Positions 5,226 through 32,680 of a stretch of DNA of 64,000 bases are shown here, one piece after another. Numbering within the stretch: position 1 is the stretch's first letter; the number at the start of each line of letters is the position of its first letter. Under the pieces are notes generated by a model. That model had not been told where the DNA came from. It ran no database searches and worked only from the letters and a program-made list of their open reading frames with translations. The position numbers were made by a program, and so were the translations under genes. This DNA is from an uncultured Bacillales bacterium (lineage in GTDB: Bacteria; Bacillota_I; Bacilli_A; RF39; UBA660). The DNA is taken from the NCBI GenBank assembly GCA_948433085.1, contig CAOJDP010000003.1:5787-69786 (forward strand), in the 5' to 3' direction.

Positions 5226-5765
5226 TTATTCAGTTAATGTAAGTTGACCATCACCAACTGGTAGATTTGCGTAATTTGCATCTGTTATATTGAAGTTTCT
5301 AGTATCCGCTTCAGGATTTTCAATTTGTACTGTAGCTGTTGGATTATTCATTGTTGTTTGTTGTACACTATCGTCAAAAGTATGAGAACCATCTGACCCT
5401 GTTTGAATAAAATAAATAGTAGGTGGTGTTGTGCCTCCATGTGGTACAAATGGGAATACTGCGTCGCCATCAACATTTGTTTCAATCATTGCTCCATAAC
5501 GATTTCCACTCGCATCACAACGATAGAAAGTCGCACCTTCTATTGGAACACCAATATCTGTTCCATCATCGGTTACATGCAAAGTTAAAGTTCCATTTGC
5601 TGAAATTGTTAAATTATAAGTGTTTGTACCTGTTGTAATATTTAACTGTTTTGGGTTGATAGATGTATTATCATAGCCTTCTACTTCTGCAAGTACATTA
5701 TAAAGTCCATCAACAATTTCTTTACTTCCTTTTCCATTGGTAATTGGAACTATGTGTTGCGCCAT
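5226..5765 (-). CDS. Hypothetical protein, predicted beta-sandwich (carboxypeptidase-regulatory/Cna-B-like), no signal peptide
   Basis: 179 aa ORF. It is Gly/Thr/Asp-rich (GTLTLHVTDDGTDIGVPIEGATFYRCDASG...DGDAVFPFVP). Its local GC is higher than the window average. It overlaps the upstream gene by 16 nt. Confidence 0.5.
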   Translation of the reverse strand: MAQHIVPITNGKGSKEIVDGLYNVLAEVEGYDNTSINPKQLNITTGTNTYNLTISANGTLTLHVTDDGTDIGVPIEGATFYRCDASGNRYGAMIETNVDGDAVFPFVPHGGTTPPTIYFIQTGSDGSHTFDDSVQQTTMNNPTATVQIENPEADTRNFNITDANYANLPVGDGQLTLTE

Positions 5766-16526: not shown

Positions 16527-17552
16527 ATGTTATGTAAAGATTTGTTAAAAAAGTTTCTGTATGTATCTGCTTATAAAAGATATATAAGAACTTGTAAAAA
16601 AAGTGGTCAAAAAAAATATATTTTGTTTGGAACTCCAAAACATGGTAATATTGGAGATCATGCAATTACTTTAGCAGTGTATCAATTTTTTAAAGATATG
16701 GGAAAACAGATATTTGAGGTTTCTAGTTTTGATCGTAAATATATTTTACCTTATATGCAAAAACATATTAATAAAGAGGATATACTTATGATTAATGGTG
16801 GAGGATTTATGGGATCGCTTTGGATAGAGGAAGAAAAGATGATTCGTGATGTATTTTCCCATTTTTTATATCATAAAATCGTTATTTTACCACAAACTAT
16901 ATATTATAAAGAAGATTGTTTAGGGATGAAGGAAATGAATACCTCTTTTAAACTTTATAATGCACATCAAGATTTAGTTGTATGTACTAGAGAAGCTATT
17001 TCTTATCGATTTGCTTGTGAACATTTTAAAATGGCAAAAGTAATTTTTGTTCCTGATATGGTATTATACTACGATAATTTTTGGAGTGATGAAAATAGAA
17101 AGAATGTTCTTTTTTGTCTTAGAAGTGATTCTGAAAAAAGTGTACAAGAGGCAACCATACAAAATATCAAAAAAATTTTTAATCAAATCAATCAACAAAT
17201 TGTGTATACAGATACAGTTATTCATAAGGGAATTTCTAAAAAAGAACGCAATTCTGTTTTTATCAATAAGTTGCTTGAATTTTCAAAATATGAGATAATA
17301 GTAACTGATCGATTGCATGGGATGATTTTTGCAGCGTTAACGGAAACCCCATGTATTGTTTTAAGTAATTATAATTATAAAGTAAAAGGTGTTTATGAAT
17401 GGATTAAGGAGCTAGAATACGTTCGCTTTATAGAAGATGAAAGTCAATTAGAAAAAAATATTTTAGAATTATTATCACAAAAATTCCCACATCAAAAAAG
17501 AGTGTGTGATAAAACAAAGTTTGCAGAATTAATTACTTTATTTGAGGAGTGA
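16527..17552 (+). CDS. Polysaccharide pyruvyl transferase (CsaB/WcaK family)
   Basis: N-terminal GTPKHGNIGDHAITLA and a C-terminal DRLHGMIFAAL...PCIVL motif are typical of PS_pyruv_trans. AGGAGG RBS. Confidence 0.75.
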   Translation: MLCKDLLKKFLYVSAYKRYIRTCKKSGQKKYILFGTPKHGNIGDHAITLAVYQFFKDMGKQIFEVSSFDRKYILPYMQKHINKEDILMINGGGFMGSLWIEEEKMIRDVFSHFLYHKIVILPQTIYYKEDCLGMKEMNTSFKLYNAHQDLVVCTREAISYRFACEHFKMAKVIFVPDMVLYYDNFWSDENRKNVLFCLRSDSEKSVQEATIQNIKKIFNQINQQIVYTDTVIHKGISKKERNSVFINKLLEFSKYEIIVTDRLHGMIFAALTETPCIVLSNYNYKVKGVYEWIKELEYVRFIEDESQLEKNILELLSQKFPHQKRVCDKTKFAELITLFEE

Positions 17553-17556
17553 AAAG

Positions 17557-18645
17557 ATGGATAAAATAAAAAAATATATAGAGTGTTATATTCCAACAGA
17601 AACCTGTAATTTTAGGTGTCATTATTGTTATATTGCACAGCAGGGAAAGTTTAAAAATAAATTAGCAAAATTCATTAAAACACCTCAAGAAATCAGAGCT
17701 GCTTTTACAAAAAAAAGGCTAGGTGGAACTTGCCTCTTTAATTTGTGTGCAGGTGGAGAAACATTATTAGTAAAAGAGATTGTGGAAATTACGCGTCAAT
17801 TATTAGAAGAAGGACATTATGTTATGATTGTAACCAATGGGTCACTTAGTAATCGTTTTAAAGAGTTTGCTCAATTTCCAAAAGCATTATTACATCGCTT
17901 GATTTTTAAATTTTCTTTTCATTATATAGAGCTCAAGAAAATGAAATTGCTTGATCAATATTTTGATAATGTAAATTTAATGAAAAAATCAGAGGCTTCT
18001 ATTGTAGTAGAAATTACCCCAAATGATGAAACAGAAGAATATATTTCTGAAATCAAGGAAATTTGTATGGAAAAGCTAGGTGCTTTGCCACAAGTTACAA
18101 TTGCTAGAAATGATAATGATCGAAGAATTAGTCATTTGTCTAAACATAGTTTTGAAGATTTTGTCAAAATATGGAGTGCGTTCGATTCCCCCATGTTGGA
18201 TTTTAAATCAACAATATTTTATAAAAAAAGAAAAGAGTATTGTTATGCAGGGGATTGGAGTATTTATGTCAATTTAGTAACAGGGGAATATTCTCAGTGC
18301 TATTGTGGAATTCGTCTTGGTAATGTCTATGAAAATATTAATCAGCCACTCAAATTGATAGCAATGGGGAAGAAGTGTTCTTTACCACACTGCTATAATG
18401 GTCATGCTTTTATTACACTTGGAGATATTCCAGAATTAGATGCGATTACATATGCAGAGCTTAGAAATCGTATCAGTGGAGATGGGACTGAATGGTTGAG
18501 TAAAGAAATGAAAGAATTTATTGGTACGAAATTGTCAGAATCGAATTCTAAATATAGTAGTATTCAGAAAATTAGCAATGAAGTAAAAAGGTATGGAACA
18601 GCATTCAATAATCGAATCAAAAAAAGGAAAACAAAAGATAATTGA
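17557..18645 (+). CDS. Radical SAM enzyme with a C-terminal Cys-rich (SPASM/twitch-like) extension
   Basis: CNFRCHYC CxxxCxxC motif, a GGE-like CAGGETLL motif, and C-terminal cysteines (CYAGDW...QCYCG...CSLPHC). RBS GAGGAGTGA precedes ATG 17557. Confidence 0.8.
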   Translation: MDKIKKYIECYIPTETCNFRCHYCYIAQQGKFKNKLAKFIKTPQEIRAAFTKKRLGGTCLFNLCAGGETLLVKEIVEITRQLLEEGHYVMIVTNGSLSNRFKEFAQFPKALLHRLIFKFSFHYIELKKMKLLDQYFDNVNLMKKSEASIVVEITPNDETEEYISEIKEICMEKLGALPQVTIARNDNDRRISHLSKHSFEDFVKIWSAFDSPMLDFKSTIFYKKRKEYCYAGDWSIYVNLVTGEYSQCYCGIRLGNVYENINQPLKLIAMGKKCSLPHCYNGHAFITLGDIPELDAITYAELRNRISGDGTEWLSKEMKEFIGTKLSESNSKYSSIQKISNEVKRYGTAFNNRIKKRKTKDN

Positions 18646-18647
18646 TT

Positions 18648-20186
18648 ATGAAAAAGCAAATTTTAATTAATATTATTGCTAGTATTATTGCATTTCTTGT
18701 TCAAATGGTAATTAGTTTTGGTTTAACCCCAATATTGGTTAATTCATTAGGGGAAGATGCTTATGGATTTATTGGTTTGGCTAATAATTTTGTTACTTAT
18801 GCGACTGTTTTTACAGTAGCAATTAATTCCATTGCTGGTAGATTTATATCTATTGCGTATAATAAGGGAGAAATAGAAAAAGCCAATTCTTATTATTCTT
18901 CCTTATTTTTTGCAAATGCAATATTATCAATTGTCATATTTTTCTTATCTATTTTTATTACAATTGAATTACATAATATTATAAAAATACCATTTTCACT
19001 TAATTATGATGTTAAGATTACTTTTTTGCTTGTATTTATTAATTTTATATTTTCTTTGTTCCATGTTACTTTTCAAGTGGTACCGTTTGTAAAGAATAAA
19101 GTAAGTTTAGTATCTGTTGTAACAGCAGTTTCTAATATTTTAAAAGTTGCGATTATTTTATGTTTATTTTCATTATTTCAACCTAAAATTTATTATATTG
19201 CCATTGCGACTTTAGCTTATAGCACTATTTTATTAGTATTATGTATTTGTATTTCCAAAAAATTATCTTCTGAATTAAAGATTCATGTGCATTCTTTTGA
19301 TTGGAAATCAGTAAAAACTTTATTTGTTTCAGGTATTTGGAATTCTATTAATAATCTAAGTAGAATTATATTAGTTGGTTTTGATTTATTAATTGCAAAT
19401 ATATTTGTAGGATCTTATTCTATGGGAATTTTGTCAATTTCCAAAAATATTCCAAATGCAATTGATACTTTATTATCCACATTAGCAGTTGCATTTGTTC
19501 CTAGTATTACTATTTCGTATGCTAAAAATAGAATTCAAGATGTTATCTCTGAAATAAAATTTTCTATGAAAATGATTGCTTTATTAATGATTGTTCCAGT
19601 TGCAGGGTTTATTATTTTTGGAACAGACTTTTATAGATTGTGGTTACATAAGTCGATAGAAGAAGTAAAATTAATTCAATTGTTATCTGTTTTAACTTTA
19701 ATTCCCTATATGTTTAGTATTTGCAACTTTACATTACCAAATATTGATACGATAACCAATAAATTAAAACGGGCTTCTATTTTCACGTTGGCAATGAGCA
19801 TCGTCACTTTAATTACAGAAATTGTCGTTTTAAAGACGTCTGATTTAGGTGTAATTGCAATTGCAAGTGTTAGTTCCTTTTATTGGGTAATAAAGTTAGC
19901 AATCTTTAATCCGCTCAATGCAGCTAAAAATTTAAATGTAAAATGGTATACATTTTATCCTGATTTTTTAAAATCATTTTTCTGTTTTTGTCTTATTTTG
20001 ATTTTATATCTATTTTTGTATCAATATATGTCTATTACTTCTTGGAAGGATTTAATTCTTTCAGCAATACTTTTTGGTACGATTGGATATGTGATTAGTT
20101 TTCTTTTCATTTTAAATAAAAAAGAAAAAAATTGGGTTTATAACAAAATTTCCAGCCGTTTGCCGTTTGTAAACGGGGGGGGGTAA
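18648..20186 (+). CDS. Wzx-type oligosaccharide flippase (polysaccharide biosynthesis protein, MOP superfamily)
   Basis: About 500 aa with 12-14 TM helices, inside a glycan locus. It ends ...FVNGGG* on a G9 tract. The start was set at ATG 18648; the track begins at TTG 18642. Confidence 0.8.
   Translation: MKKQILINIIASIIAFLVQMVISFGLTPILVNSLGEDAYGFIGLANNFVTYATVFTVAINSIAGRFISIAYNKGEIEKANSYYSSLFFANAILSIVIFFLSIFITIELHNIIKIPFSLNYDVKITFLLVFINFIFSLFHVTFQVVPFVKNKVSLVSVVTAVSNILKVAIILCLFSLFQPKIYYIAIATLAYSTILLVLCICISKKLSSELKIHVHSFDWKSVKTLFVSGIWNSINNLSRIILVGFDLLIANIFVGSYSMGILSISKNIPNAIDTLLSTLAVAFVPSITISYAKNRIQDVISEIKFSMKMIALLMIVPVAGFIIFGTDFYRLWLHKSIEEVKLIQLLSVLTLIPYMFSICNFTLPNIDTITNKLKRASIFTLAMSIVTLITEIVVLKTSDLGVIAIASVSSFYWVIKLAIFNPLNAAKNLNVKWYTFYPDFLKSFFCFCLILILYLFLYQYMSITSWKDLILSAILFGTIGYVISFLFILNKKEKNWVYNKISSRLPFVNGGG
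20175..20183 (+). repeat. G9 homopolymeric tract (candidate slipped-strand phase-variation site or homopolymer error hotspot)
   Basis: GGGGGGGGG sits directly 5' of the Wzx stop TAA (20184-20186). It is unique in this AT-rich window. Confidence 0.9.
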
Positions 20187-20247
20187 AATTTTAATTGTTA
20201 TTGTTATCATTTTTAGTTTTCTATTTTTAATTCAAAGAAAAGAAAAT

Positions 20248-20979
20248 GTGCAATATATTCATTTTTCAGTAGATGACACCATTCTATTGTTTGCTGATTT
20301 AGAGCAAAATAAAGATGTGTATACTAGTATATTTGAGAATGCTACTTTAAAATATTTTCAAAGATTACATAAGCAGTATGGATTAAAAGTTACTTTTTAT
20401 TGTTTCTACGAATTTTCGAATGTTTCTTTAGAAAATATTACCAGTCAGTATCGGAAAGAGTTTGAAGAAAATTCTCATTGGTTACAATTTGGATTTCACG
20501 CTTATGATGCAGGAAGAGAATATGATAAAGATTCTTTCCATTATAGTATTACAAATGATTATCTAACTGTTATTCAGGCATTAGAAAATATTGTTGGAGA
20601 AAAAGCGATTAGCAAGCATTTACGATTAGAGAAATTTTCTTTAAATGAAGGGAATGCAAATTGTTTAAAAGATGTGGGAATTCAAATTCTATTTGGAAGT
20701 GATACTTTAGAAAAAAATAGTTATTATTTAAACAGTGAACAATCTTATCAGTTGTTTACCAAGGGTTATTATTATGATTGGAAAAAACAACTTCAATTTT
20801 ATAAAACGGATATTCGAATAGAGCAATCAAAAGGTGTAGAAGATATGATTCAGGATATAAAAGGAGATTCTTATTTAGTTATTTTTACACATGAATGGTT
20901 ATTGAGTGATTTATTAAAAGAAAAAATGGAATTACTCTTGAAACAATTGCAGAAATATAAATATCAATTTTCTATATAA
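20248..20979 (+). CDS. Hypothetical protein, possibly a divergent NodB/CE4-like deacetylase-type fold (weak)
   Basis: GTG start with a weak RBS. It contains HFSVDD and FHAYDAGREY motifs. The frame is open upstream back to 20173 and there encodes a hydrophobic segment KILIVIVIIFSFLFLI. Confidence 0.45.
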   Translation: MQYIHFSVDDTILLFADLEQNKDVYTSIFENATLKYFQRLHKQYGLKVTFYCFYEFSNVSLENITSQYRKEFEENSHWLQFGFHAYDAGREYDKDSFHYSITNDYLTVIQALENIVGEKAISKHLRLEKFSLNEGNANCLKDVGIQILFGSDTLEKNSYYLNSEQSYQLFTKGYYYDWKKQLQFYKTDIRIEQSKGVEDMIQDIKGDSYLVIFTHEWLLSDLLKEKMELLLKQLQKYKYQFSI

Positions 20980-21002
20980 AGTTGGTAGAAGTGAGGTTAG
21001 TG

Positions 21003-22022
21003 ATGAAGAAAGAAATTAAAGTCAAGTTTGTAGATTTTTACGACTCTTATAATCCAAAAGAACATTTTTTGTATCAAGCGTTGGAAAGAAAATACCATGT
21101 TGTTTTATCTGATAAACCAGATTATTTGTTCTTTTCTGTATTTGGTGATGAACATTTGCATTATGACTGTATTAAAATATTTTATACAGGAGAAAATTTA
21201 TGTCCAGATTTTAATTTATGTGATTATGCAATAGGTTTTGAATATTTAGAGTATCAAGACCGCTATATGCGTTTACCAAATTATTACCATCCAGCATATG
21301 CAAAAGATTTGAATGCTATGTTGAAAAGGACATCATTTACAGAAGAAGATTTAGTGCAAAAGGAAGGATTTTGTAGTTTTGTTTATTCCAATGGAAATGC
21401 AGATCCTATTCGTGAAATATTTTTTGAACAATTATCTCAGTATAAACAAGTTCATTCAGGGGGTAAATTTAAAAATAATATTGGTGGACCCGTAGCAGAT
21501 AAAATTGAATTTCAAAGAAAATATAAATTTTGTTTAGCTTTTGAAAATTCTTCCCATCCTGGATATACTACAGAAAAATTAATTCAAGCTTATGCTTCTA
21601 ATGCAATTCCAATCTATTGGGGAGATCCATTTGTGACGAAAGTGTTTAATGAAAAATCGTTTATCAATGTAGGTGCTTATAATACGATAGAAGATGCGAT
21701 TGCTTTTATTCAAAAAATAGATAGGGATGATTCGCTTTATTTGGAAATGATGCATGAATCGCCATTATGTGTAGAAGAAAATGTGATTGCATATAAAATG
21801 GATGAATTAAGTGCTTTCTTATCCAATATTATGGAGCAACCTTTTGAAAAAGCGAAACGTTATAATCGAGTATGTATTGGAAAAAAATATATTCAAAAAT
21901 TGAAATTATGGAACAAAGCATATGATAAAAAAATAAAAGTGCGAATGAAAAAATTTATATTTAAAATGAAAAAATTTAGGGTAAATGTATTGAAAAAATA
22001 TAGATTATTTGGATATAGATAA
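21003..22022 (+). CDS. GT10-family alpha-1,3-fucosyltransferase-like glycosyltransferase
   Basis: GT10 signature KYKFCLAFENSSHPGYTTEKLIQAY (FxLxFENSxxxxYxTEK) and a C-terminal basic amphipathic repeat region (KKYIQKLKLWNKAYDKKIKVRMKKFIFKMKKF). GTGAGG RBS before ATG 21003. Confidence 0.65.
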   Translation: MKKEIKVKFVDFYDSYNPKEHFLYQALERKYHVVLSDKPDYLFFSVFGDEHLHYDCIKIFYTGENLCPDFNLCDYAIGFEYLEYQDRYMRLPNYYHPAYAKDLNAMLKRTSFTEEDLVQKEGFCSFVYSNGNADPIREIFFEQLSQYKQVHSGGKFKNNIGGPVADKIEFQRKYKFCLAFENSSHPGYTTEKLIQAYASNAIPIYWGDPFVTKVFNEKSFINVGAYNTIEDAIAFIQKIDRDDSLYLEMMHESPLCVEENVIAYKMDELSAFLSNIMEQPFEKAKRYNRVCIGKKYIQKLKLWNKAYDKKIKVRMKKFIFKMKKFRVNVLKKYRLFGYR

Positions 22023-22127
22023 TCTATTTTTTTATAAGAATGAATATAAGATATAATAGGATTTTTTTAAAAAATCTTATTTCTAAAATTCAAGATATTT
22101 GTTTGTCCTTCTTAATACAAAAATTTA

Positions 22128-22158
22128 TTTTCCATTCAAGTAATGGAAAAATTTTTTT
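22128..22158 (+). terminator. Rho-independent terminator ending the glycosyltransferase operon
   Basis: 9 bp stem TTTTCCATT / AATGGAAAA with a 5 nt loop, followed by ATTTTTTTAT. Confidence 0.5.
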
Positions 22159-22310
22159 ATGTAATCTATATTTAGTTGAGTAGCAATTAAACATAAATTT
22201 TCCTTTTACAATTGAGAAATACATATGCGAATAAAAACTTTAAAAAATATTTAATTTTTGAAAACGATATGTTATAATAATCTTGTGAAGCTAGTAGAAA
22301 GAAGTGAATT

Positions 22311-23756
22311 ATGTCAAAGAAAAAAAATAAAAAAAATAGAATAATTGTGCAAAGAATTGGAACAGTATTATCTATTTTATTATTCGCAATTTCATTTGTA
22401 TTTTTTACAATGTTATTTCAGGTAAGTGTATTGCCAATGAAGTATCTTTTAATTGTTTTAGGAATTTATTTACTTGTTGTGTTGGGCTCTGTAGCAATTT
22501 TATTGATTCCAAAGATTAAAATAAAGTTAAAAATAGTAGTAGAGATTTTATCTACAATCATAATTATTTTTGTAAGTTTTATTTCATTTTATTTATATAA
22601 GACAATGGATTTTATGGGGAATATTAAAGCGAAAGATTATCAAATTGAAAATTATTATGTAGTTGTTTTAAAAGATAGTAAATACGAAACATTAGAAGAT
22701 TTGAAAAGTAAAACAATCGGGCTTCATCGGAGTAATTTGGAGAGTCAAAAAGATGCAATCGAAACGTTGAATAAAAAGCTATCTTATACAGATGAAGAAT
22801 ACGAAGATTTTATGAAATTAGGGAAAGATTTATTAGACAAACAAGTAGATGCGATATATATGAATGGTTCATATTTGTCCATTTTACAAGAAGAAAATGA
22901 ATCATTTGAAGAAAAAACAAAATTACTAGCAACAATAGAGTTACAAGTAAAAAATGAAACAGTAAAAAAAGATACAAATGTAACAAAAGAGCCATTTAAT
23001 ATATATATTAGTGGAATTGATACATATGGGGATATTTCTTCTGTATCAAGAAGTGATGTAAATATTATTGCTACGGTAAATCCTGTTACACATAAAGTGT
23101 TGTTAACTTCAATACCAAGAGATTACTATGTAAGACTTCATGGAACTACAGGCTATAGAGATAAGTTAACACATGCTGGAATTTATGGAATTGATATGTC
23201 AATTACAACATTAGAGGATTTACTTGATATTGATATCAACTATTATGTGAGAGTGAATTTTACTACTCTCATAGAACTTGTAGATGCAGTAGGTGGTGTA
23301 ACTGTGAATTCAGATTATAATTTTACTGCTATTTCAGGAGAAAAATTTATAAAGGGTGACAATATCTTAAATGGATCACAAGCACTTGCTTTTTCAAGAG
23401 AACGTCATGCATTTATAGATGGAGATCGTCAACGTGGCAAAAATCAACAAAAAGTAATTACAGCAATTATTAATAAAGCATTAAGCTCTACAACATTAAT
23501 TACAAAATATACGAATATATTAAATTCATTGCAAGATAGTTTTCAAACAAATATGGACAGTAATAAAATATATGATTTAGTGAATATGCAATTAAATAAA
23601 ATGCCATCTTGGCAAATTGAATCCATTAATTTAGATGGAACAGGAAAAAGTGAATTTACTTATTCTTATAGTGGGCAAAAACTATATGTAATGGAACCAG
23701 ATGTTAGTACGGTAAATGCAGCGCAAGCAAAAATAAATGAAGTAATAGGAGGGTAA
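22311..23756 (+). CDS. LytR-CpsA-Psr (LCP) family glycopolymer ligase with N-terminal multi-TM region
   Basis: LCP domain: NIYISGIDTYGD...NIIATVNPVTHKVLLTSIPRDYYV...VRVNFTTLIELVDAVGGVTV...FSRERH. Three to four N-terminal TM helices. Confidence 0.85.
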   Translation: MSKKKNKKNRIIVQRIGTVLSILLFAISFVFFTMLFQVSVLPMKYLLIVLGIYLLVVLGSVAILLIPKIKIKLKIVVEILSTIIIIFVSFISFYLYKTMDFMGNIKAKDYQIENYYVVVLKDSKYETLEDLKSKTIGLHRSNLESQKDAIETLNKKLSYTDEEYEDFMKLGKDLLDKQVDAIYMNGSYLSILQEENESFEEKTKLLATIELQVKNETVKKDTNVTKEPFNIYISGIDTYGDISSVSRSDVNIIATVNPVTHKVLLTSIPRDYYVRLHGTTGYRDKLTHAGIYGIDMSITTLEDLLDIDINYYVRVNFTTLIELVDAVGGVTVNSDYNFTAISGEKFIKGDNILNGSQALAFSRERHAFIDGDRQRGKNQQKVITAIINKALSSTTLITKYTNILNSLQDSFQTNMDSNKIYDLVNMQLNKMPSWQIESINLDGTGKSEFTYSYSGQKLYVMEPDVSTVNAAQAKINEVIGG

Positions 23757-23954: not shown

Positions 23955-25232
23955 ATGGCAGGTATCAAAATAAAATCTCATAAAGAAATGTCGAAAGATA
24001 GTTTTACAATTTATAATAAGCCAAAATACATTTATATTCCATTAATGGGAAGCAATGACCAAGATATTACAGTTTTCGTTAAAAAAGGAGACTATGTATG
24101 TAAAGGAGAAATGGTCGCTAGAAGAAAAGGTGCCTTTTCTATTCCTTTTCATACCAGTGTAAGTGGAACTGTAATTGGTTTTGAAGAAAAACTACATCAT
24201 AGTGGGACCTATGTCAGATGTATTAAAATTGAAAATGATTTGAAAGAGCGAGTAGAAGAATCACTAGAAATAAAAGAAAATTTATCCAAGGAAGAATTTA
24301 TTGAAACAATTAAAAATGCAGGAATTATAGGAATGGGGGGTGCAGGCTTTCCAACCTATATTAAATATCAAACCGATCAAAAAATAAAAACTTTAATTGT
24401 AAATGCAGTAGAATGTGAGCCATATATTACAGCAGATTATACTCTTGGAATTCAAAAAGCAGAAGCAATCTTAGAAACAATTGATCGAATAATGGAAATA
24501 AACGAAATTGAAAAAGCTTTTATTGCAGTTAAAAAAAACAATCAGCAATTCATTCAAGCTTTTCAATTTGTAATAGGTACTTATGTAAATATTGAAATTA
24601 AAATAGTGCCAGATTGCTATCCTATGGGATGGGAAAAAATGTTGGTAAAAACAATAACCAAAAAAACATATCAAAAACTTCCCATTGAAATTGGTGTAGT
24701 TGTAAATAATTTATCTACAATTTATGCAATACATCAAGCTTTAACAGGGATTCCACTCATTGAAAGAATAATTACCATTACAGGGGATTTGGTAAAAAAA
24801 CCACAAAATGTACAAGTAAAAATAGGAACTCCACTTCATGAAGTGATTGAAGCAATCAGTGGAATGAAACGTCATAAAGATGTTATTTGTATCGCAGGTG
24901 GTCCTATGATGGGGAATGCTTTAAAAGAAGATGATGTAATTGTGACAGCTGATTTGAATGGTCTGATTTTGTTAAAAGAAAAAGAGGAATGTAAGGAACA
25001 TACTTGTATGCGTTGTGGAAAATGTATAAATGTTTGTCCAGCAGGTATTGAACCAGTTCTTATCAAAGAATCATATCAAGATAAGGAACAATTAAATCGT
25101 TTGCAAGTTGGAAAATGTATTGAATGTGGTTTATGTTCTTATATTTGTCCAGCAAAAATAAATGTGAGAGAATATGTTAGAAAAGCGAAAAAGACTGTTA
25201 GAAAGGAGACTGCAAATGAAAGAATATCATGA
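23955..25232 (+). CDS. rnfC: Rnf electron transport complex subunit C
   Basis: NADH/FMN-binding GIIGMGGAGFPTYIKY and two 4Fe-4S motifs (CMRCGKCINVCP; CIECGLCSYICP). Confidence 0.85.
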   Translation: MAGIKIKSHKEMSKDSFTIYNKPKYIYIPLMGSNDQDITVFVKKGDYVCKGEMVARRKGAFSIPFHTSVSGTVIGFEEKLHHSGTYVRCIKIENDLKERVEESLEIKENLSKEEFIETIKNAGIIGMGGAGFPTYIKYQTDQKIKTLIVNAVECEPYITADYTLGIQKAEAILETIDRIMEINEIEKAFIAVKKNNQQFIQAFQFVIGTYVNIEIKIVPDCYPMGWEKMLVKTITKKTYQKLPIEIGVVVNNLSTIYAIHQALTGIPLIERIITITGDLVKKPQNVQVKIGTPLHEVIEAISGMKRHKDVICIAGGPMMGNALKEDDVIVTADLNGLILLKEKEECKEHTCMRCGKCINVCPAGIEPVLIKESYQDKEQLNRLQVGKCIECGLCSYICPAKINVREYVRKAKKTVRKETANERIS

Positions 25233-26661
25233 ACAAACAGGTCCTTTTTGTAGGGATCAAGATTCTACAACTAAAATGATGTTTCATTTAGTAATTGCTC
25301 TTTTACCAATTGTATTGTTTAGTTTTTATAAAAATGGGCTTGTTCCTTATCAACATCACAAAGTAGGATTGTATGGACTATTTCATCCACTTTTATTTAT
25401 TCTAATTCCTACAGTTGTTACCTATTTAACAGAGTGGGTAGGAGCACGGTTACTTTTACAAAAAAAGGGCTTAGAATTAAAAGATTATATGCGACATTCT
25501 TATGCATTAATACCAGGTTTGTTTTTAGGTTTGATTTTGCCTTTAAATACACCTATTCCTATTTTATTATTTGGCTCTGTATTAGCAACCTTAATTGGTA
25601 AATTGGTATATGGAGGATTTGGCAATAACATTTTCAATCCTGCACTCATTGGAAGACTCTTTATTATTACAACTTATGCTGGTGTAATTGCAAGTCAAGG
25701 AGGTTATTTCAATGCTTATGAATTAGATACCATTAGTCAAGCAACGCCTTTATCCAATCTTACAACAATAGAAGGGATTGGAAGTTATGAAACATTAGTT
25801 GCTCCTTATGGTACTTTGTGGAATTTTTTTACAGGAATGATTCCAGGTGCAGTCGGGGAAACAAGTGCTCTTTTATGTTTGTTTGCATTTCTTTATCTTG
25901 TATGGAAAAAAGTCATTAAATGGAAAATATCTATTTGTTATATTGGAACTGTTTTTCTTCTAACCGCATTGATTGGATGTTTAAATGGGCTTACTTTATG
26001 GTATCCTATGTTTCAAATATTGAGTGGAGGACTTTTCTTTGGTGCTATTTTTATGGCAACTGATCCAGTTACTTCCCCAGTTACAAAACAGGGACAGATT
26101 TTATATGGAATTTTTTTAGGAATTTTGACTGTAATACTCCGTTATTTTACAAGTTATCCTGAAGGTGTTTTAACGAGTATTTTGACAATGAATTTATTTG
26201 TTTTTATTATTGATAAATTAGGAATTCAAAGTAAAAATAAAGAAAAAAGTTTATTATTATTTGCATCTATTGTAATCATAATGGGAATTTTAGTATATCA
26301 AATAAATACACTGTATTCTTATCATGGTGAAAAAGTAGATCCTAACTTTTCATTGATAGAAGAACATCAAGTAGGAAAAAAAGTTATTTATAAGGTATCT
26401 CAAAAAGGAAATGGTGGACCAATTCTATGTGAAGTGGTTATTCAAAATGGAAAAATTGAAAAACTAGAGGTATTAGAGCACAATGAAACACCAAGTTATT
26501 ATTCAATTATAGAAAAAGAAAATTATTTAAATACTCTTATAAAAGAACAAATGCATTTACCAGAATTGGATACAGTAAGTGGGGCAACAATTTCATCTAA
26601 TGCATTAAAAAAACTAGTATTGAATACATTACAAGAATATGAGGAACATTATGGAAAATAA
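25216..26661 (+). CDS. rnfD-rnfG: Rnf subunit D fused to a C-terminal RnfG-like FMN-binding domain
   Basis: NqrB/RnfD-type polytopic N-terminus of about 330 aa, including GAIFMATDPVTSP. The C-terminal roughly 150 aa carry the FMN_bind signature DTVSGATISSNALKK. GGAGAC RBS precedes ATG 25216. Confidence 0.8.
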   Translation: MKEYHEQTGPFCRDQDSTTKMMFHLVIALLPIVLFSFYKNGLVPYQHHKVGLYGLFHPLLFILIPTVVTYLTEWVGARLLLQKKGLELKDYMRHSYALIPGLFLGLILPLNTPIPILLFGSVLATLIGKLVYGGFGNNIFNPALIGRLFIITTYAGVIASQGGYFNAYELDTISQATPLSNLTTIEGIGSYETLVAPYGTLWNFFTGMIPGAVGETSALLCLFAFLYLVWKKVIKWKISICYIGTVFLLTALIGCLNGLTLWYPMFQILSGGLFFGAIFMATDPVTSPVTKQGQILYGIFLGILTVILRYFTSYPEGVLTSILTMNLFVFIIDKLGIQSKNKEKSLLLFASIVIIMGILVYQINTLYSYHGEKVDPNFSLIEEHQVGKKVIYKVSQKGNGGPILCEVVIQNGKIEKLEVLEHNETPSYYSIIEKENYLNTLIKEQMHLPELDTVSGATISSNALKKLVLNTLQEYEEHYGK

Positions 26662-26751
26662 AAAAATTAAGGGCGTATTCGCGCTAACAATAACAACCTT
26701 TATATGTACATTGCTTCTTTATTTGATTATGAATTTTATTGGGGGTTAACA

Positions 26752-27288
26752 ATGTCTTTAAATTCATTTTATTATAAGTTGTTACACATTGAATCAAAAC
26801 CTTTATCAGAAACTTACATTTTATGGGAAATTGAGGAAACTATAAAGGAAGAAATGGATTCGATTCAAAATTGGTCAAGTAGTATTGAGGGACTTTGTAA
26901 AGTTGCAAGTTACCATATTGGTGAAATGCTAAGACAAAAAGGGATATCTATTGCGTATTTGAATACTAAGAATTTTTCTTGTGCGTTTGAGCATGTTGCA
27001 CTATTAGTTTACTATGAAATAAGCAATGAAATAAAGTATATTTTAATTGATGTAACATATGAACAATTTCTTCCTGTTGCAAATAGAAGACTTAATCCTA
27101 AATTGAAAAGCTGGCCTGGGATATGTTTAATGGAAAATAATTTTAGTTTGTATGAAAACTTATGTACCAAAGGTTATTCTTCCATTACAATCAAGGACTT
27201 AAATGATTATATGAAAAGTTTTGGATATACAAACAATTTAAATAATAATTTATTTGATGTGATTCTACATACACATAAGAAAAAATAA
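26752..27288 (+). CDS. Hypothetical protein inserted between rnfDG and rnfE
   Basis: 178 aa from ATG 26752 (GGGGG RBS). No TM helix and no recognisable Rnf subunit signature. It has a Cys...His...Asp arrangement (SCAFEHVALLVYY...ILIDVTYEQF) faintly reminiscent of transglutaminase-like cores. Confidence 0.4.
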   Translation: MSLNSFYYKLLHIESKPLSETYILWEIEETIKEEMDSIQNWSSSIEGLCKVASYHIGEMLRQKGISIAYLNTKNFSCAFEHVALLVYYEISNEIKYILIDVTYEQFLPVANRRLNPKLKSWPGICLMENNFSLYENLCTKGYSSITIKDLNDYMKSFGYTNNLNNNLFDVILHTHKKK

Positions 27289-27301: not shown

Positions 27302-27928
27302 ATGAAAATTATAAAAAATGGAATTTTTTATGAAAATCCTGTTTTTGTGTTATTGTTAGGCTTATGTTCTACTTTAGCTATTACAACAAAGTTTGAAAAT
27401 GCTTATTTAATGGGCATTTGTGTAACATTTGTTTTAATTGGATCTAATGTTATTATTTCATTGATTCGTAGATGGATTCCAGATAATGTAAAAACACCTG
27501 TTTTCATTTTAATTATCGCAACATTAGTAACAATCATAGAATTAATTGTAAAAAATTACGCAAATGATGTTTATGAGGTATTTGGAATTTATCTTCCACT
27601 TATTGTTGTCAATTGTATTATTTTAGGAAGAGCGATAGTAGTGGCATCTAAACAAAATGTAGGCTACAGTGCTTTAGATGGGTTAGGAATCGGCTTGGGT
27701 TATACATTGGCAATCATGTTAATCGCACTTATTCGAGAGGTATTTGGAAGCAATACGATTACTTTAATGGATTCCATTAGTAGCCTGACAGGATACCGAG
27801 CAATTTATCATGTTTTTCCTGAAAATTTTATTCCAATTTCTTTTCTAGTTTCCCCAGCGGGTGCTTTTCTGACATTGGGTATTTTAATGGGAGTTTTTAA
27901 TTCTATTCGTAAAAGGAGGACAACATGA
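27302..27928 (+). CDS. rnfE: Rnf electron transport complex subunit E
   Basis: NqrD/RnfE signature NPVFVLLLGLCSTLAITT...; six TM helices. Confidence 0.85.
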   Translation: MKIIKNGIFYENPVFVLLLGLCSTLAITTKFENAYLMGICVTFVLIGSNVIISLIRRWIPDNVKTPVFILIIATLVTIIELIVKNYANDVYEVFGIYLPLIVVNCIILGRAIVVASKQNVGYSALDGLGIGLGYTLAIMLIALIREVFGSNTITLMDSISSLTGYRAIYHVFPENFIPISFLVSPAGAFLTLGILMGVFNSIRKRRTT

Positions 27929-28488
27929 ATCTTATTCATTTATTTTTAGTAAGTTTTTTAACAGAGAACATTGTACTTACAAAATTTCTAGGAATTTGTC
28001 CTTTTGTTGGGACTTCTAGTAAAGAAAAAAGTGCAGCAGGAATGGGTGGTGCAGTAACATTTGTAGTCACTATCTCTGGAATATTGACATATCTTTTATA
28101 CCATTATGTATTAGTACCCACAGATACTGTGTATTTAAAAACTTTGCTATTTGTATTGGTTGTTGCTTGTATGGTACAAATAATCGAGATGGTAATCAAA
28201 AAATGGAATCCAAAGTTATATCAAAATTTAGGAATTTATTTACCGCTGATTACCACCAATTGTGCGGTTTTGGGTATTTTATTACTTAATATTACAAATC
28301 AATATTCCTTTTTAGAGATGCTTACTTATTGTATTGGATCTAGTTTAGGTTTTACCGCAGTGATTTATACCTTTGCAACCATACGTGAGCAGTTGGAAAA
28401 AAGAGATGTTCCTGAATATTGGAAAGGATATCCAATTGCGTTCATCACAGTAGCAATCATGTCACTTCTTTTTTCGAGGTATTTATGA
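27925..28488 (+). CDS. rnfA: Rnf electron transport complex subunit A
   Basis: NqrE/RnfA signature LGICPFVGTS...GIYLPLITTNCAVLG. Overlaps rnfE by 4 nt. Confidence 0.85.
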   Translation: MNLIHLFLVSFLTENIVLTKFLGICPFVGTSSKEKSAAGMGGAVTFVVTISGILTYLLYHYVLVPTDTVYLKTLLFVLVVACMVQIIEMVIKKWNPKLYQNLGIYLPLITTNCAVLGILLLNITNQYSFLEMLTYCIGSSLGFTAVIYTFATIREQLEKRDVPEYWKGYPIAFITVAIMSLLFSRYL

Positions 28489-28598
28489 TTGCATATATTA
28501 TTTTAGTTTTATTAACTTTTCTGTATCTATTTTTATCAAAGAAAAATAAATGTCAAAATTGTAGCATGTGTAATCATTGTAAGGGGAGGAAAGAATGA
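28485..28598 (+). CDS. Candidate 37-aa membrane-anchored Cys-rich micro-ORF (TM helix plus CQNCSMCNHC)
   Basis: Its ATG overlaps the rnfA stop (ATGA) and its TGA overlaps the next ATG (ATGA). GAGG RBS 8 nt upstream. It is below the ORF-track length cut-off. Confidence 0.35.
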   Translation: MIAYIILVLLTFLYLFLSKKNKCQNCSMCNHCKGRKE

Positions 28599-28858
28599 TA
28601 GGTATTTTAATTATGACTTTAATTGCTTTTATTTTATCTATTATTTTAGTTATTATTTACGATAAAACAATAGAAAAACCAAATAAGTATTTAAAATATT
28701 TGCCTGGCTATAATTGTGGTGCTTGTGGGTTTGGTAGTTGTAAGGGTATGAGTGAGGCAATGGAGAAAGATATTATGCATTATAAAAAGTGTAGACCTTT
28801 AAAAGGAGAGGCGCTTCAAAAAATGGAAGAGATGGTTTGTCAACAAATAGGAAAGTAG
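28595..28858 (+). CDS. rnfB-like: RnfB N-terminal domain only (TM helix plus CxxCxxxxC...C Fe-S motif); ferredoxin domains absent
   Basis: GYNCGACGFGSCKGMSEAMEKDIMHYKKC matches the RnfB N-domain cysteine pattern. The ORF stops after 87 aa and no CxxCxxCxxxCP ferredoxin repeats follow in any frame. Confidence 0.55.
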   Translation: MIGILIMTLIAFILSIILVIIYDKTIEKPNKYLKYLPGYNCGACGFGSCKGMSEAMEKDIMHYKKCRPLKGEALQKMEEMVCQQIGK

Positions 28859-28928
28859 TGCATGAAAATTTAACGAGAAAATTAGTGAAAAGGCATTTCT
28901 AATTTGAACAATTTTTGATATACTAATT

Positions 28929-29201
28929 ATGAAAGGGCTGATTGTAATGAAAAAATACTTTGTAATTGTAGGCGTTATTGGACTTGTTTTTGCAGTATCA
29001 AAAGTAAGTGCATGGGGATTTGGCCATCCAAAAGATGTTACGTTAGAACCTAGTACGCAAGTTCAAACAAGTATACATCATGGTAACACTTATCATACTT
29101 GTAATGCGTATTGTGAACATGCAAATACAGCTATAGATGCTTATCATTATCCTCATCAATATAATGGTTATCATCAAAAAGGGGGATGTCATCATCGCTA
29201 A
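28929..29201 (+). CDS. Small secreted His/Cys-rich protein
   Basis: Sec-type signal peptide (MKKYFVIVGVIGLVFAVSKVSA). The mature part of about 63 aa has 9 His, 3 Cys and several Tyr (HHGNTYHTCNAYCEHANTAIDAYHYPHQYNGYHQKGGCHHR). The start may be the internal ATG 28947. It has its own extended -10 (TGaTATACT). Confidence 0.5.
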   Translation: MKGLIVMKKYFVIVGVIGLVFAVSKVSAWGFGHPKDVTLEPSTQVQTSIHHGNTYHTCNAYCEHANTAIDAYHYPHQYNGYHQKGGCHHR

Positions 29202-29298
29202 AAATGAAGATGACTACATAAATTGTATTATGTATTTTTAGTCTAGAAAAGGAAGAATTATAAAATAGTTTGTAAATGGATTTCTATTTGCAAACGAG

Positions 29299-29317
29299 AA
29301 GGGTTATCCCTTTTTTT
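29299..29317 (+). terminator. Rho-independent terminator closing the rnf / small-peptide unit
   Basis: AAGGG / CCCTT stem, loop TTAT, then TTTTTTT. Confidence 0.5.
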
Positions 29318-29542
29318 GATGATTACAATGCGTTTGTAAATCATGAAAACGGCATTGTATGTCATAAAAATTCACAAGGAAAGCAGAAAGAATAATATAG
29401 TAAATTTATAAATTATAGAGTATTCATAGGAAAGAATTAACATTTTTGGTATATAGAATTGAAAAAAATGTTGGAAATTTGTAAAAACATGTTATAATAG
29501 AAAACAATTATTTTGAAGGTTTTAAACCATAAGGGGGAAAAT

Positions 29543-31294
29543 ATGACAAAGGTAACTTATTTAGAAGAACAATTGAACAAAAAAATGGAAGAAAATCAGT
29601 CTATTGTAGCTTTAATTGGACTTGGAAAAAATGCGAAACAACTTTATTTAGATTACATAAAAAAACATAATATTGAACTTGTATTGGTTGTAGAGTTAGA
29701 ATCTAAAAAAGAAAATACGAAAACATATTTAGAGGAAAATGGATTTTCTAATACAAAGATATTTTCTATTCCAGATGAATTAAAAAGTAGTGAACATTTG
29801 CCACAAAATATATTTGATAACTTGGTAGCAGTTAGCAATATATTAGAAATTACACATGTTATAATTGATACAGAACCGAAATCCCATTATATGTATTTAG
29901 AATTTGCACTTAAAAACAATATTCATGTACTAACAGATTTGCCTATTACGATTACACAAAATATAGATCATATGAAAAAAATTAAAGCAATTAAAAACCA
30001 ATACTATAATATTTTAGATTTATCCAATTCATCTGAATCCATATGTAAAATTATGTGTCAAAAACAATACCATAGAGGATATGAATATATTCTTCAACAA
30101 ATAGACACGATTGTAAAAAAATATCAAATACCAATTACTTATATCAGTATTGATTACTCAAATGGATTATGGCAAATGCCTCACGATATTCTTTGTAAAG
30201 AAAACTATCCTTATCGCTTTTTATTTGAAGAAGGGTATCATTATATTAATTTTTTAAGTGATTTGTTACAAATGAATAATCAACTGTCAGAATCTAAAAA
30301 AATAGTAGATGGAGAAATTTATACCAATTGTCTTACATTAGAAGATACATTTTCTACTTGTAATCAAGAAGATTATAAGAGATTATTTAAAAATCAAGAT
30401 ATTCCTACTTATTATGATGGTGCGATAGAAATTCCTAAGGGTGGAGAAGGAAATTTCTATAGTTTAATGAAATTTATGAATAAAGAGCAACAAACGATAA
30501 CGAATGTTAACTTAAACTTGTCCCATTATGGATTTTCTCGTCGAGGTCAAATTGAAGAAAATACAGGTGCGGTTAAACATGAATATATGAGTATTCAAAT
30601 TGGAACGTTATTTAAAATACAAGTGCATAGTTATCAATCTAAGGAAGAAAAAGATAGAAAAAAAAGTACAAGTGAAGAAAATGTAGGCGGTTTGGATCAT
30701 TTTGATATTGATATTTATAGAAATGTTGATATTATAGGTGGAAAAGCATTTGAACGAATTAAATTGTCGGAACTCTATAATGAAAAAGAAGCACAAGAAA
30801 CAACTGATTATGATAGTTTAGCAAAAGAAAATTATTTAAAGCAATTTTTAAATAAACAATGTAATCAAGGGGATATGAAACAACAAGCATTGGGTATGGA
30901 ACTTTTATATGGCTGTATTCTAGGTATCCATAATGTTTTTAAAAATAAGAAAGGGCCTGTAAAAATACAGTTAAAAAATAGATATACTCAACCTGTCATC
31001 ATAGAGGATTTAAAGAAATGTTCTACTAAAATTAATTCAAAAGAGAAAAAAGATGCGATTGATTGTTATGAAATTTCAGGAATCCAATATGAATTTGGTG
31101 TAGTTATGAATCAAATTTATAGTAATAATCATTATGAGGTATATCTATATGTTAGCAATCACCGTGATAAAGCAGATTTACTATTTTATAGAGACATTAA
31201 ACATATCTTTATTGCAAAATTATATTTTCAAATCTTAAAAAAGGTTGCTAGAACAGAAAATATGAATCGAATTGCTAAATTGTTAAGAATATAA
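29543..31294 (+). CDS. Hypothetical protein with N-terminal Gfo/Idh/MocA-like NAD(P)-binding region and an unassigned C-terminal extension of about 400 aa
   Basis: IVALIGLGKNAKQ (Rossmann GxGxxA) and ITHVIIDTEPKSHYMYLEFALKNNIHVLTDLP resemble the Gfo/Idh/MocA N-domain. AAGGGGGAAAAT RBS before ATG 29543. Sigma-A promoter TTGGAA-N17-TATAAT upstream. Confidence 0.5.
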   Translation: MTKVTYLEEQLNKKMEENQSIVALIGLGKNAKQLYLDYIKKHNIELVLVVELESKKENTKTYLEENGFSNTKIFSIPDELKSSEHLPQNIFDNLVAVSNILEITHVIIDTEPKSHYMYLEFALKNNIHVLTDLPITITQNIDHMKKIKAIKNQYYNILDLSNSSESICKIMCQKQYHRGYEYILQQIDTIVKKYQIPITYISIDYSNGLWQMPHDILCKENYPYRFLFEEGYHYINFLSDLLQMNNQLSESKKIVDGEIYTNCLTLEDTFSTCNQEDYKRLFKNQDIPTYYDGAIEIPKGGEGNFYSLMKFMNKEQQTITNVNLNLSHYGFSRRGQIEENTGAVKHEYMSIQIGTLFKIQVHSYQSKEEKDRKKSTSEENVGGLDHFDIDIYRNVDIIGGKAFERIKLSELYNEKEAQETTDYDSLAKENYLKQFLNKQCNQGDMKQQALGMELLYGCILGIHNVFKNKKGPVKIQLKNRYTQPVIIEDLKKCSTKINSKEKKDAIDCYEISGIQYEFGVVMNQIYSNNHYEVYLYVSNHRDKADLLFYRDIKHIFIAKLYFQILKKVARTENMNRIAKLLRI

Positions 31295-31342
31295 TTTCAT
31301 ATATAAATAGAAACGTGATATAATGTAATAGAGGTAGATAGT

Positions 31343-32680
31343 ATGTACCAAAATCAAAAAATTCTAATTTTAGGTATGGCCAGAAGTGGTTATGAAGTCG
31401 CAAAACTATTGTCCAAATATCAAAATGAAATTACCATTACAGATGGAGTAAAACAGGATGAATTTCAAGTAGAAGAATTGAAAAAGTTAAATATTCCTGT
31501 TATTATTACACAAAATCAAGCAGAATTATTAGATGAAAGCTTTGATGTAGTTGTAAAAAATCCTGGTATTAAATATACGCATCCATGTGTTCAAAAAGCA
31601 GGTCAACTTAATATTCCAGTTGTAAATGAACTAGAAGTTGCGTATACTTTTTTACCCAAAGATACTAAAATTATTGGAGTTACAGGTTCTAATGGGAAAA
31701 CAACAACGGTTACTTTACTATATGAAATACTCAAACAGAAATTTGAAACGCATTTATGCGGTAATATTGGGTGCCCACTTTCTAGTATAGTTTTGAATGT
31801 TAAAAGTGGTGATTTACTTGTAATAGAGATATCGGATCATCAGTTATGTGATATGTATCAATTTAAAACAGATGTCAGTATACTGACGAATATCAGTGAT
31901 GCGCATACAGATTTTCATGACTCACATGAACGTTATGTTGCAGTTAAAAAACGAATTTTCAACCATCATGATGAACACAATTATGGAATCATCAATTATG
32001 ATAATCAGGAAGCAATGGAAGTAACGAAAGATATCGTTACACATAAGATTTATTTTTCTAGAACAGCGAAACAAGATTGTTATTTAGAGGATGGAAAGAT
32101 TTATTATGCACATCAACCGTTTTTATCTATCGAGGATATTTGTTTAAAAGGAAACCATAATTATGAAAATATAATGGCTACTATATTGGTTGCAAAATTA
32201 TTTAACATAGAAGATTCCATAATCAAAAATATATTGAAAAATTTTAGTGGTGTAGAACATCGAATGGAATATGTTACAACGATTCAAAATCGAGAATTTT
32301 ATAATGATTCTAAATCTACTAATAATGTGGCAACTATAACTGCTTTACAATCTTTTCAAAAACCTGTTCATTTATTATTAGGGGGCTTAGATCGTAACCA
32401 AAATTTTGAAGAGTTGTATCCTTATATGACATTCGTAAAAAGAGTGTATTGTTTTGGAGAAACCAAAGAAAAAATTTTTCAATTTTGTAAAATGAAAGAT
32501 ATTGCGTGTGAATTATTTAATGATTTAAAAGAAGCAACGAAAAAAGCTTATCAAATGTCAAGTGAACAAGAAATTATTTTGCTGTCGCCAGCTTGTGCCT
32601 CATGGGATCAATATACTTGCTTTGAAGATCGTGGAAATTCATTTAAAGAAGTCATTCGTACATTCTATAAAGAACAATAA
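31343..32680 (+). CDS. murD: UDP-N-acetylmuramoyl-L-alanine--D-glutamate ligase
   Basis: ILILGMARSGYEVAKLL Rossmann region and GVTGSNGKTTT Mur-ligase P-loop; 445 aa. Confidence 0.9.
   Translation: MYQNQKILILGMARSGYEVAKLLSKYQNEITITDGVKQDEFQVEELKKLNIPVIITQNQAELLDESFDVVVKNPGIKYTHPCVQKAGQLNIPVVNELEVAYTFLPKDTKIIGVTGSNGKTTTVTLLYEILKQKFETHLCGNIGCPLSSIVLNVKSGDLLVIEISDHQLCDMYQFKTDVSILTNISDAHTDFHDSHERYVAVKKRIFNHHDEHNYGIINYDNQEAMEVTKDIVTHKIYFSRTAKQDCYLEDGKIYYAHQPFLSIEDICLKGNHNYENIMATILVAKLFNIEDSIIKNILKNFSGVEHRMEYVTTIQNREFYNDSKSTNNVATITALQSFQKPVHLLLGGLDRNQNFEELYPYMTFVKRVYCFGETKEKIFQFCKMKDIACELFNDLKEATKKAYQMSSEQEIILLSPACASWDQYTCFEDRGNSFKEVIRTFYKEQ

Follow-up and report, generated by a model that had tools for sequence, protein, structure and literature searches.

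Introduction

Histidine imidazoles and cysteine thiolates are the main ligands of zinc, nickel and copper. Among the exported peptides with which the locus described here can be compared, SmbP is an all-helical repeat protein of the Gram-negative periplasm that contains no cysteine, and histatins are short secreted peptides of eukaryotes with clustered His and Tyr residues, which bind metals and whose charge is switched on at acidic pH. Sec-dependent class II bacteriocins, such as enterocin P and lactococcin 972, combine a Sec signal with a mature peptide of 40–70 aa; they are often strain-specific, are cationic or hydrophobic, and their gene lies next to an immunity gene. Two metal binders of this general type are SmbP, a small (about 10 kDa), unusually His-rich protein that is exported by means of a signal peptide and binds several divalent metals (PMC8929023), and the polyhistidine-triad (Pht) proteins, His-rich surface or extracellular proteins of streptococci that bind zinc and hand it to an uptake system (PMC3842936).

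Here, we analyzed a small open reading frame (ORF) from an uncultured gut bacterium of the Bacilli, located in a stretch of DNA of 64,000 nucleotides (hereafter, the window) with a G+C content of 28.7%. We refer to the ORF, its gene and its product as the mini-ORF, mini-gene and mini-protein. Like SmbP, the mini-protein is small, starts with a predicted signal peptide and is unusually rich in His, and it is a putative binder of divalent metals; however, it shares no sequence similarity with SmbP, has three Cys and six Tyr residues, shows no predicted helical repeat and belongs to a Gram-positive-type cell. With the Pht proteins it shares an origin in Firmicutes, a (predicted) extracellular location and the abundance of His, but Pht proteins differ in being large, in their repeated HxxHxH triads and in the location of their genes beside adcAII, whereas the mini-protein has no HxxHxH motif, no adjacent transporter gene and no homology to them. 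By analogy, the mini-protein would work like SmbP or Pht while being unrelated to both. Indeed, no sequence or profile match was found to the known metal-binding families that we compared it with (SmbP, Pht, ZinT, CopZ/HMA, Hpn and others).

Results and discussion

The mini-ORF has the statistics of a gene

The ORF proposed in the initial annotation (28929–29201, forward strand) is present, and gene annotation places it directly after the rnf genes, as had been described (Table 1). It is the sole ORF within a gap of 654 bp. There are two in-frame ATG codons, at 28929 and 28947, and both of the resulting products (90 and 84 aa) have been reported by gene callers in public assemblies; in total, the mini-gene was called by independent pipelines on 5 contigs. 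The likely start is the ATG at 28947, because it is preceded by a Shine-Dalgarno sequence at a distance of 10 nt, whereas the ATG at 28929 has none and lies at or before the expected transcription start.

Table 1. Features of the rnf–murD region around the mini-gene, in positions of the window.
Feature	Position	Strand	Comment
rnfC	23955–25232		
Fused rnfD-rnfG	25174–26661	+	495 aa
194-aa gene	26704–27288	+	No family match; between rnfDG and rnfE
rnfE	27302–27928		
rnfA	27925–28488		
37-aa Cys-rich membrane ORF	28486–28599	+	MIAYIILVLLTFLYLFLSKKNKCQNCSMCNHCKGRKE; between rnfA and short rnfB
rnfB (short)	28595–28858	+	87 aa; transmembrane helix and PF04060 Fe-S domain only
Lineage-specific cargo	28859–31342	+	Mini-gene and 583-aa gene; from short rnfB to murD
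Extended −10 promoter element	28916–28924	+	TGATATACT; read from sequence, aligned with relatives
Shine-Dalgarno sequence	28931–28936	+	GAAAGG; 10 nt before ATG 28947, no match for ATG 28929
Mini-gene, coding sequence	28947–29201	+	84-aa pre-protein; coding score and Shine-Dalgarno; upstream start 28929 gives 90 aa
Predicted Sec (type I) signal peptide	28947–29012	+	MKKYFVIVGVIGLVFAVSKVSA; rule-based n/h/c-region test; predicted cleavage between VSA and WG
Predicted mature peptide	29013–29198	+	62 aa, 7.1 kDa, pI 6.85; 10 His, 3 Cys, 6 Tyr
Likely intrinsic terminator	29268–29317	+	Double hairpin and U-tract; dG −21.8 kcal/mol, z −6.5
583-aa gene	29543–31294	+	Weak N-terminal GFO/IDH/MocA Rossmann domain; own promoter
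murD	31343–32680		
LtaS-like sulfatase-domain protein			Downstream

The length of the mini-ORF by itself is weak evidence for a gene, since an ORF of at least 84 codons was found in 4.7% of the dinucleotide shuffles of the 654-bp spacer. The same holds for its richness in His: spurious His-rich ORFs do turn up in the AT-rich DNA of the window, and one shadow ORF inside another gene (5423–5638) encodes 13 His residues. For a frame-specific measure, we used a 3-periodic Markov model trained on 48 long genes of the window, with leave-one-out fragments as the reference. In its own frame, the mini-ORF scored 0.20 nat/codon, compared to 0.21 ± 0.08 for fragments of real genes, which places it at the median of the real genes of the window; its other five frames all had negative scores. 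It also scored above every shadow ORF, as all 56 of these fell below −0.02. The G+C content at codon positions 1, 2 and 3 (0.54/0.38/0.13, compared to 0.41/0.29/0.18 for real genes of the window) follows the GC1>GC2>GC3 periodicity that is typical for genes. Coding score, codon periodicity and the signal peptide described below are three independent properties that set the mini-ORF apart from spurious ORFs, and we consider it quite probable that it is a translated gene.

The product has a signal peptide-like N-terminus and a His/Cys/Tyr-rich mature part

The 84-aa pre-protein consists of MKKYFVIVGVIGLVFAVSKVSA followed by WGFGHPKDVTLEPSTQVQTSIHHGNTYHTCNAYCEHANTAIDAYHYPHQYNGYHQKGGCHHR. Its N-terminus divides into a charged n-region (MKK), a hydrophobic core (YFVIVGVIGLVFAV) and a c-region (SKVSA, followed by WG), so that the boundary with the mature peptide falls between MKKYFVIVGVIGLVFAVSKVSA and WGF. 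We evaluated this N-terminus with a rule that combines a charged n-region, a 12-residue hydrophobic core, small residues at positions −3 and −1, and a hydrophilic continuation. Only 6 of the 135 ORFs of at least 50 aa passed this rule; apart from the mini-ORF, these were long, evidently real envelope proteins, and no spurious ORF was among them. By this rule-based sequence test, the mini-protein has the features of a substrate for Sec export and type I signal peptidase; signal peptides of this class have a positive n-region and an unbroken hydrophobic stretch of 10–15 residues. It has no L-x-x-C lipobox and no Cys within precursor residues 1–50, and thus does not resemble a bacterial lipoprotein. 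As its sequence contains neither an LPXTG sortase motif nor a second hydrophobic segment either, release as a hydrophilic peptide of 7.1 kDa would be expected.

For the mature peptide, the initial annotation had counted 9 His, 3 Cys and 6 Tyr; our recount over 62 aa agrees for Cys and Tyr and corrects His to 10. The usual His content of proteins in the window is 2%, and segments taken from real proteins never exceeded 7 His. The residues of interest are concentrated in the last 43 positions, of which 18 (42%) are His, Cys or Tyr: nine of the ten His, together with every Cys and Tyr of the peptide. Within this part, two related units can be recognized (HHGNTYH-T-C and HQYNGYH-QKG-GC), which correspond to an internal DNA repeat (29076–29096 and 29154–29174, 71% identical), and the peptide ends in C-H-H-R. 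It is strongly hydrophilic (GRAVY −1.1) and contains neither an amphipathic nor a hydrophobic stretch. An AlphaFold model made without an alignment had a pLDDT of 59.5 and no defined site, and was unusable.

The mini-gene is a strict orphan

The initial annotation had made its case depend on conservation in related genomes, and in this respect the outcome was negative: no homologue was found anywhere. A word-indexed search of 5.8e9 protein clusters returned only the mini-protein's own cluster, with two members (the 84-aa and 90-aa forms) on five contigs. An exhaustive HMMER scan of 1.84e9 representatives returned the mini-protein itself and two repeat proteins, both of which we rejected, as their significance is the sum of weak matches that recur along the protein: one (P0002) is a translated tandem repeat, and the other (P0003), a PVL_ORF50/HNH-associated repeat protein of phage origin, owes its E-value to three repeats of a match with 10 of 24 residues identical. 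A weak match to phrog_6246 (E 0.0018) was rejected as well, given that P0003 lacks it and the two hints thus do not converge. Pfam and NCBIfam gave no match, and the PDB none beyond the N-terminus of an unrelated serine protease (E = 0.13), which we took as chance. At the DNA level, pattern scans of metagenome and viral contigs retrieved only the same strain, and no relative of the mini-gene was found with tblastn on plasmids, with blastn on phages, or in about 0.5 Mb of related loci searched with tblastn, tblastx and blastn. Analogous small ORFs that encode a signal peptide and are rich in His or Cys were also searched for in all fetched loci, where only the Rnf-linked Cys-rich peptide discussed below appeared.

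Judged by these searches, the mini-gene is a strict orphan, present in one uncultured gut bacterium only. Its sequence is the same in three samples. One further locus (L035) is 100% identical to the window and another (L001) differs by a single base, in the stop codon of rnfB, so that the mini-gene itself shows no polymorphism among them. The lack of any homologue weakens the claim of a conserved function, and means that there is no evidence of purifying selection, but it does not weaken the claim that the mini-ORF is a gene. As a singleton without conservation, it therefore allows no generalisation at present and has no bearing on Rnf biology. While the mini-protein is, as far as these searches reach, unique as a sequence, it would belong to a kind that is already known, the small Sec-exported peptide rich in His and Cys.

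Orphan status of this type is also what a non-functional or very young ORF would show, if it had arisen in a recently acquired or rearranged spacer, owed its hydrophobic N-terminus to chance, and were little expressed or without a selected function. Such an origin would fit a strict singleton at a junction that is rearranged in every lineage (see below), the presence of ORFs of sufficient length in about 5% of shuffled spacers, the His-rich shadow ORFs of the same window and the low AlphaFold confidence. It does not account for a frame-specific coding score equal to that of real genes, which none of the 56 spurious ORFs came near, nor for the fact that promoter, Shine-Dalgarno sequence, signal peptide and terminator occur in the right order and spacing, nor for the failure of all spurious ORFs to pass the signal-peptide rule. 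We consider this explanation unlikely, though well short of negligible.

A possible exported metal-binding peptide

The reading that we prefer, with a probability of roughly 40%, is that the mini-gene is a genuine, lineage-restricted orphan gene for an exported metal-binding peptide. It would probably be transcribed from the extended −10 element that follows the rnf operon, with a probable contribution of read-through from rnf, and its translation would start at the ATG at 28947. Export of the product by the Sec pathway and cleavage after VSA, as predicted from the signal peptide, would free a peptide whose likeliest activity, to go by its composition, is to bind divalent transition metals (Zn, Ni, Cu or Co) on the outer side of the membrane. 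The putative ligands are the two His-x2-Asn-x-Tyr-His-x(1-4)-Cys units and the C-terminal Cys-His-His. In this role, the peptide may buffer, scavenge or detoxify metals in the cell envelope of its host, an anaerobic gut bacterium of the Bacilli, and its gene would be cargo in the variable slot between rnfB and murD. Since the number of Cys residues is odd and the envelope is that of an anaerobe, the simplest reading is that imidazoles and thiolates coordinate Zn, Ni, Cu or Co.

We infer export, cleavage and metal binding only from the sequence, and any metal-related, redox or antimicrobial activity is only a guess from composition. In other words, the picture of a secreted mini-protein with flanking signals, as first proposed, stands insofar as the protein is plausibly real, Sec-exported by sequence, extreme in His, Cys and Tyr, and flanked by promoter-like and terminator-like elements, while the role assigned to it derives from composition. 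Within about 10 kb of the mini-gene, we found no metal transporter, metalloregulator or metal riboswitch; the genes located there include polysaccharide-synthesis, LCP, YqfD, VanZ and YbeY genes. Should the mini-protein be made and bind metal, it would be a taxonomically restricted small secreted protein that serves one gut strain in its own handling of Zn, Ni or Cu, or in attacking its neighbours, and it could provide a compact natural metal-binding tag.

The absence of adjacent modifying enzymes had been pointed out before, and we confirmed it: the direct neighbours are rnfB and the 583-aa GFO/IDH/MocA-like gene, and the closest radical SAM gene, part of a polysaccharide cluster, lies at a distance of 10 kb. 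RiPP precursors are accompanied by a maturation enzyme (radical SAM, YcaO, LanM/LanB or a cyclase) and by an exporter or protease of their own, and their leader is not a Sec signal. With no maturation enzyme next to it and with a Sec signal of its own, the mini-protein does not resemble a RiPP precursor. It does not resemble a pro-peptide of the RNPP type (Phr, PapR, NprX) either, as rnfB and the Rossmann-fold neighbour carry no TPR or HTH receptor domain. The 583-aa gene was considered as a modifying enzyme and rejected. Its family is large (more than 340 proteins at 45–54% identity) and uncharacterised, and in the five other contexts that we inspected, its homologues have LysR-NUDIX upstream and proteins of about 170 aa downstream, and the small ORFs present are unrelated to the mini-protein. 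Since no mini-protein-like partner accompanies the homologues in these five contexts, the 583-aa gene is not a dedicated partner or modifying enzyme. Apart from its N-terminal domain, about 430 residues of the 583-aa protein match no family; the homologues flanked by LysR and NUDIX come from other gut bacteria, and their neighbours of about 170 aa have no assigned role.

The same composition could instead suit a Sec-dependent, pH-switched antimicrobial peptide of the histatin or His-rich defensin type, nearly neutral at pH 7, strongly cationic under acidic conditions, possibly potentiated by metal, and directed against competitors in the gut. The calculated charge of the mature peptide is indeed −0.4 at pH 7, +3.9 at pH 6 and +8.7 at pH 5, and like many bacteriocins, the peptide is small, predicted to be Sec-exported and the product of a gene that stands alone in variable DNA specific to the strain. 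Eukaryotes are known to make His-rich peptides with antimicrobial and metal-binding properties (PMC7557933). The mini-protein resembles histatins and His-rich defensins in its shortness, its predicted secretion, its clustered His and Tyr, its putative metal binding and its calculated acid-dependent charge; however, these peptides are eukaryotic and unrelated in sequence, and defensins have a conserved 8-Cys fold, compared to only 3 Cys here. The likeness to class II bacteriocins lies in the Sec signal peptide, the 62-aa mature peptide and the restriction to one strain. Unlike these bacteriocins, the mini-protein has a pI of 6.85, is very hydrophilic and has no amphipathic or hydrophobic segment, and Pfam and NCBIfam assign it to no bacteriocin family. 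A candidate for an immunity gene is missing too: no immunity, ABC transporter or membrane-protein gene adjoins the mini-gene, and the sole small ORF nearby (29276–29395) encodes a hydrophilic product and overlaps the terminator. An antimicrobial function therefore strikes us as rather improbable.

A bolder proposal would be an exported metallopeptide of recent origin that is specific to this species and lacks any relative among approximately 15 billion known proteins. It would act either as a "zincophore" or scavenger of nickel or, activated by pH and metal, as an antimicrobial of the histatin type, and its 3' codons would perhaps couple translation to read-through by pairing with the terminator. 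In this combined form we regard it as a long shot.

Flanking signals and RNA structure

The initial annotation had given the mini-gene a promoter of its own. The presumed −35/−10 is better read as an extended −10 promoter, from which transcription is expected to start at about 28931, whereas the −35 (TTTCTA, 28896–28901) is weak. Because this −35 matches fewer than four of the six consensus positions, our consensus promoter scan listed no promoter ahead of the mini-gene. The extended −10 is conserved in position, at the left edge of the junction, in the related loci that we inspected (L002–L005 and L042), reading TGTTATACT in L002 and L003, TGTTATAAT in L004, TGATATAAT in L005 and TGATATACT in L042. 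It sits after the short rnfB and, judging from this alignment, drives whichever gene comes next in these relatives. No terminator was found between rnfB and the mini-ORF, and read-through from rnf is therefore also likely. The claim of a promoter of its own is thus partly borne out, by the conserved position of the extended −10, and qualified by the poor −35, the silence of the scan and the lack of a terminator after rnfB.

A terminator had been proposed at about 29299, and although a simple terminator scan missed it, it is well supported as a structure: a 12-bp hairpin (29268–29295) is followed by a second hairpin, GAGAAGGG-UUAU-CCCUUUUU (29296–29315), and then by a U-tract, and none of 200 shuffles folded as well. 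A repeated GTTTGTAAAT motif near the terminator showed no enrichment in the window. No Rfam riboswitch or other RNA family was detected in the region 28800–29560, even at E ≤ 1.

The last codons of the mini-ORF (29164–29187) are 83% complementary to the 3' arm and U-tract of the terminator (29306–29329), the two segments making up a 24-nt inverted repeat, and in the minimum-energy fold of 29140–29335 (dG −52 kcal/mol, z −5.2) the resulting long stem abolishes the terminator hairpin. Alternative structures of this kind raise the idea of a translated leader, in which the position of the ribosome on an ORF rich in His and Tyr codons decides between terminator and antiterminator, and hence read-through into the 583-aa gene. 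Leader peptides of the His-operon type are encoded by 14–30 codons, among which the regulatory ones are consecutive; they lack a signal peptide and lie ahead of biosynthetic genes. In attenuators of this kind, the terminator and antiterminator helices exclude each other, and the regulated gene has no promoter of its own. The mini-ORF shares with them the abundance of His codons and the subsequent alternative RNA structures that include a terminator, but no known leader peptide has a signal peptide or a length of 84 codons as it does, its His codons are scattered, and it does not precede a biosynthetic gene. In addition, the inverted repeat is marginal, as about 5% of shuffles reach its score, the 583-aa gene has a good TG-extended promoter of its own (29471–29498, from the consensus scan), and its homologues elsewhere do without such a leader. 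We consider an attenuating leader very improbable.

The rnfB–murD junction carries different cargo in different lineages

To place the mini-gene in its context, we searched a genome collection with RnfA and obtained 33 loci, all from metagenome-assembled genomes of uncultured gut Bacilli or "Bacillales", at 43–80% identity. A gene resembling that of the mini-protein was absent from all 33, and likewise from the position after rnfB in a total of 39 related rnf loci (these 33 and 6 further contigs), including those with RnfA 79–80% identical. It is thus missing from relatives in which RnfA is 66–80% and the short RnfB 71–79% identical, and it does not co-occur with rnfCDGEAB across genomes, as would be expected of an Rnf subunit or accessory protein. 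What follows the short rnfB differs instead by lineage: about 80 bp and then murD in two loci with RnfA at 79% (L002 and L003), two pilin-like ALK_LTK_GRD/N_methyl genes in L004, an unrelated 295-aa gene in three loci with rnfB at 77% (L042–L044), and murL in L045 and L046. As the genes after the short rnfB differ in each lineage, the mini-gene is to be seen as cargo of a variable junction and not as a companion of rnf. Judged from this comparison, its adjacency to rnf is accidental and without a functional tie to Rnf, in line with the earlier suspicion that the neighbourhood might be coincidental.

An accessory or assembly factor for Rnf, such as a donor of metal or Fe-S clusters on the outer face of the membrane, would fit the position immediately 3' of rnfB with no terminator between them and hence possible co-transcription, but this reading comes close to being refuted by the absence of the mini-gene in all 39 related loci and by the unrelated genes that occupy the junction in different lineages.

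In one of these lineages, the junction also holds a further element: right after rnfB in L004 (6930–7110), about 70 nt lie between the conserved promoter and a strong G10/C-rich hairpin with a T-run, making up a short, apparently non-coding transcription unit.

Observations on the rnf cluster and its surroundings

Of more use than the mini-gene itself may be two by-products of this analysis, namely the description of a cargo slot at the rnfB–murD junction, and a conserved 37-aa Cys-rich membrane peptide encoded within the rnf cluster. The latter (MIAYIILVLLTFLYLFLSKKNKCQNCSMCNHCKGRKE) consists of one transmembrane helix and a CxxCxxCxxC tail, and its position and pattern were kept in all ten related rnf clusters that were inspected. 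It has weak matches, below the gathering score, to PF12669 (FeoB-associated Cys-rich membrane protein), and may be an unrecognised small Rnf-linked subunit.

The RnfB of this cluster lacks the usual 4Fe-4S ferredoxin domains. All relatives have the same short form, of 83–93 aa, and more than 170 database proteins share it, which raises the question by which route electrons pass from ferredoxin into this Rnf. The 194-aa gene is kept in 9 of the 11 related loci tabulated, at 27–47% identity; L005, L012 and L013 lack it, and it was not called in L042, L045 or L047.

Approximately 5–11 kb upstream of the mini-gene lies a cell-envelope polysaccharide cluster (17542–23756, forward strand), whose members include a radical SAM protein, a Polysacc_synt flippase, a GT10 alpha-1,3-fucosyltransferase-like protein and an LCP (CpsA-like) transferase. 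For a gut bacterium of the Bacilli, a fucosyltransferase of the GT10 type is unusual.
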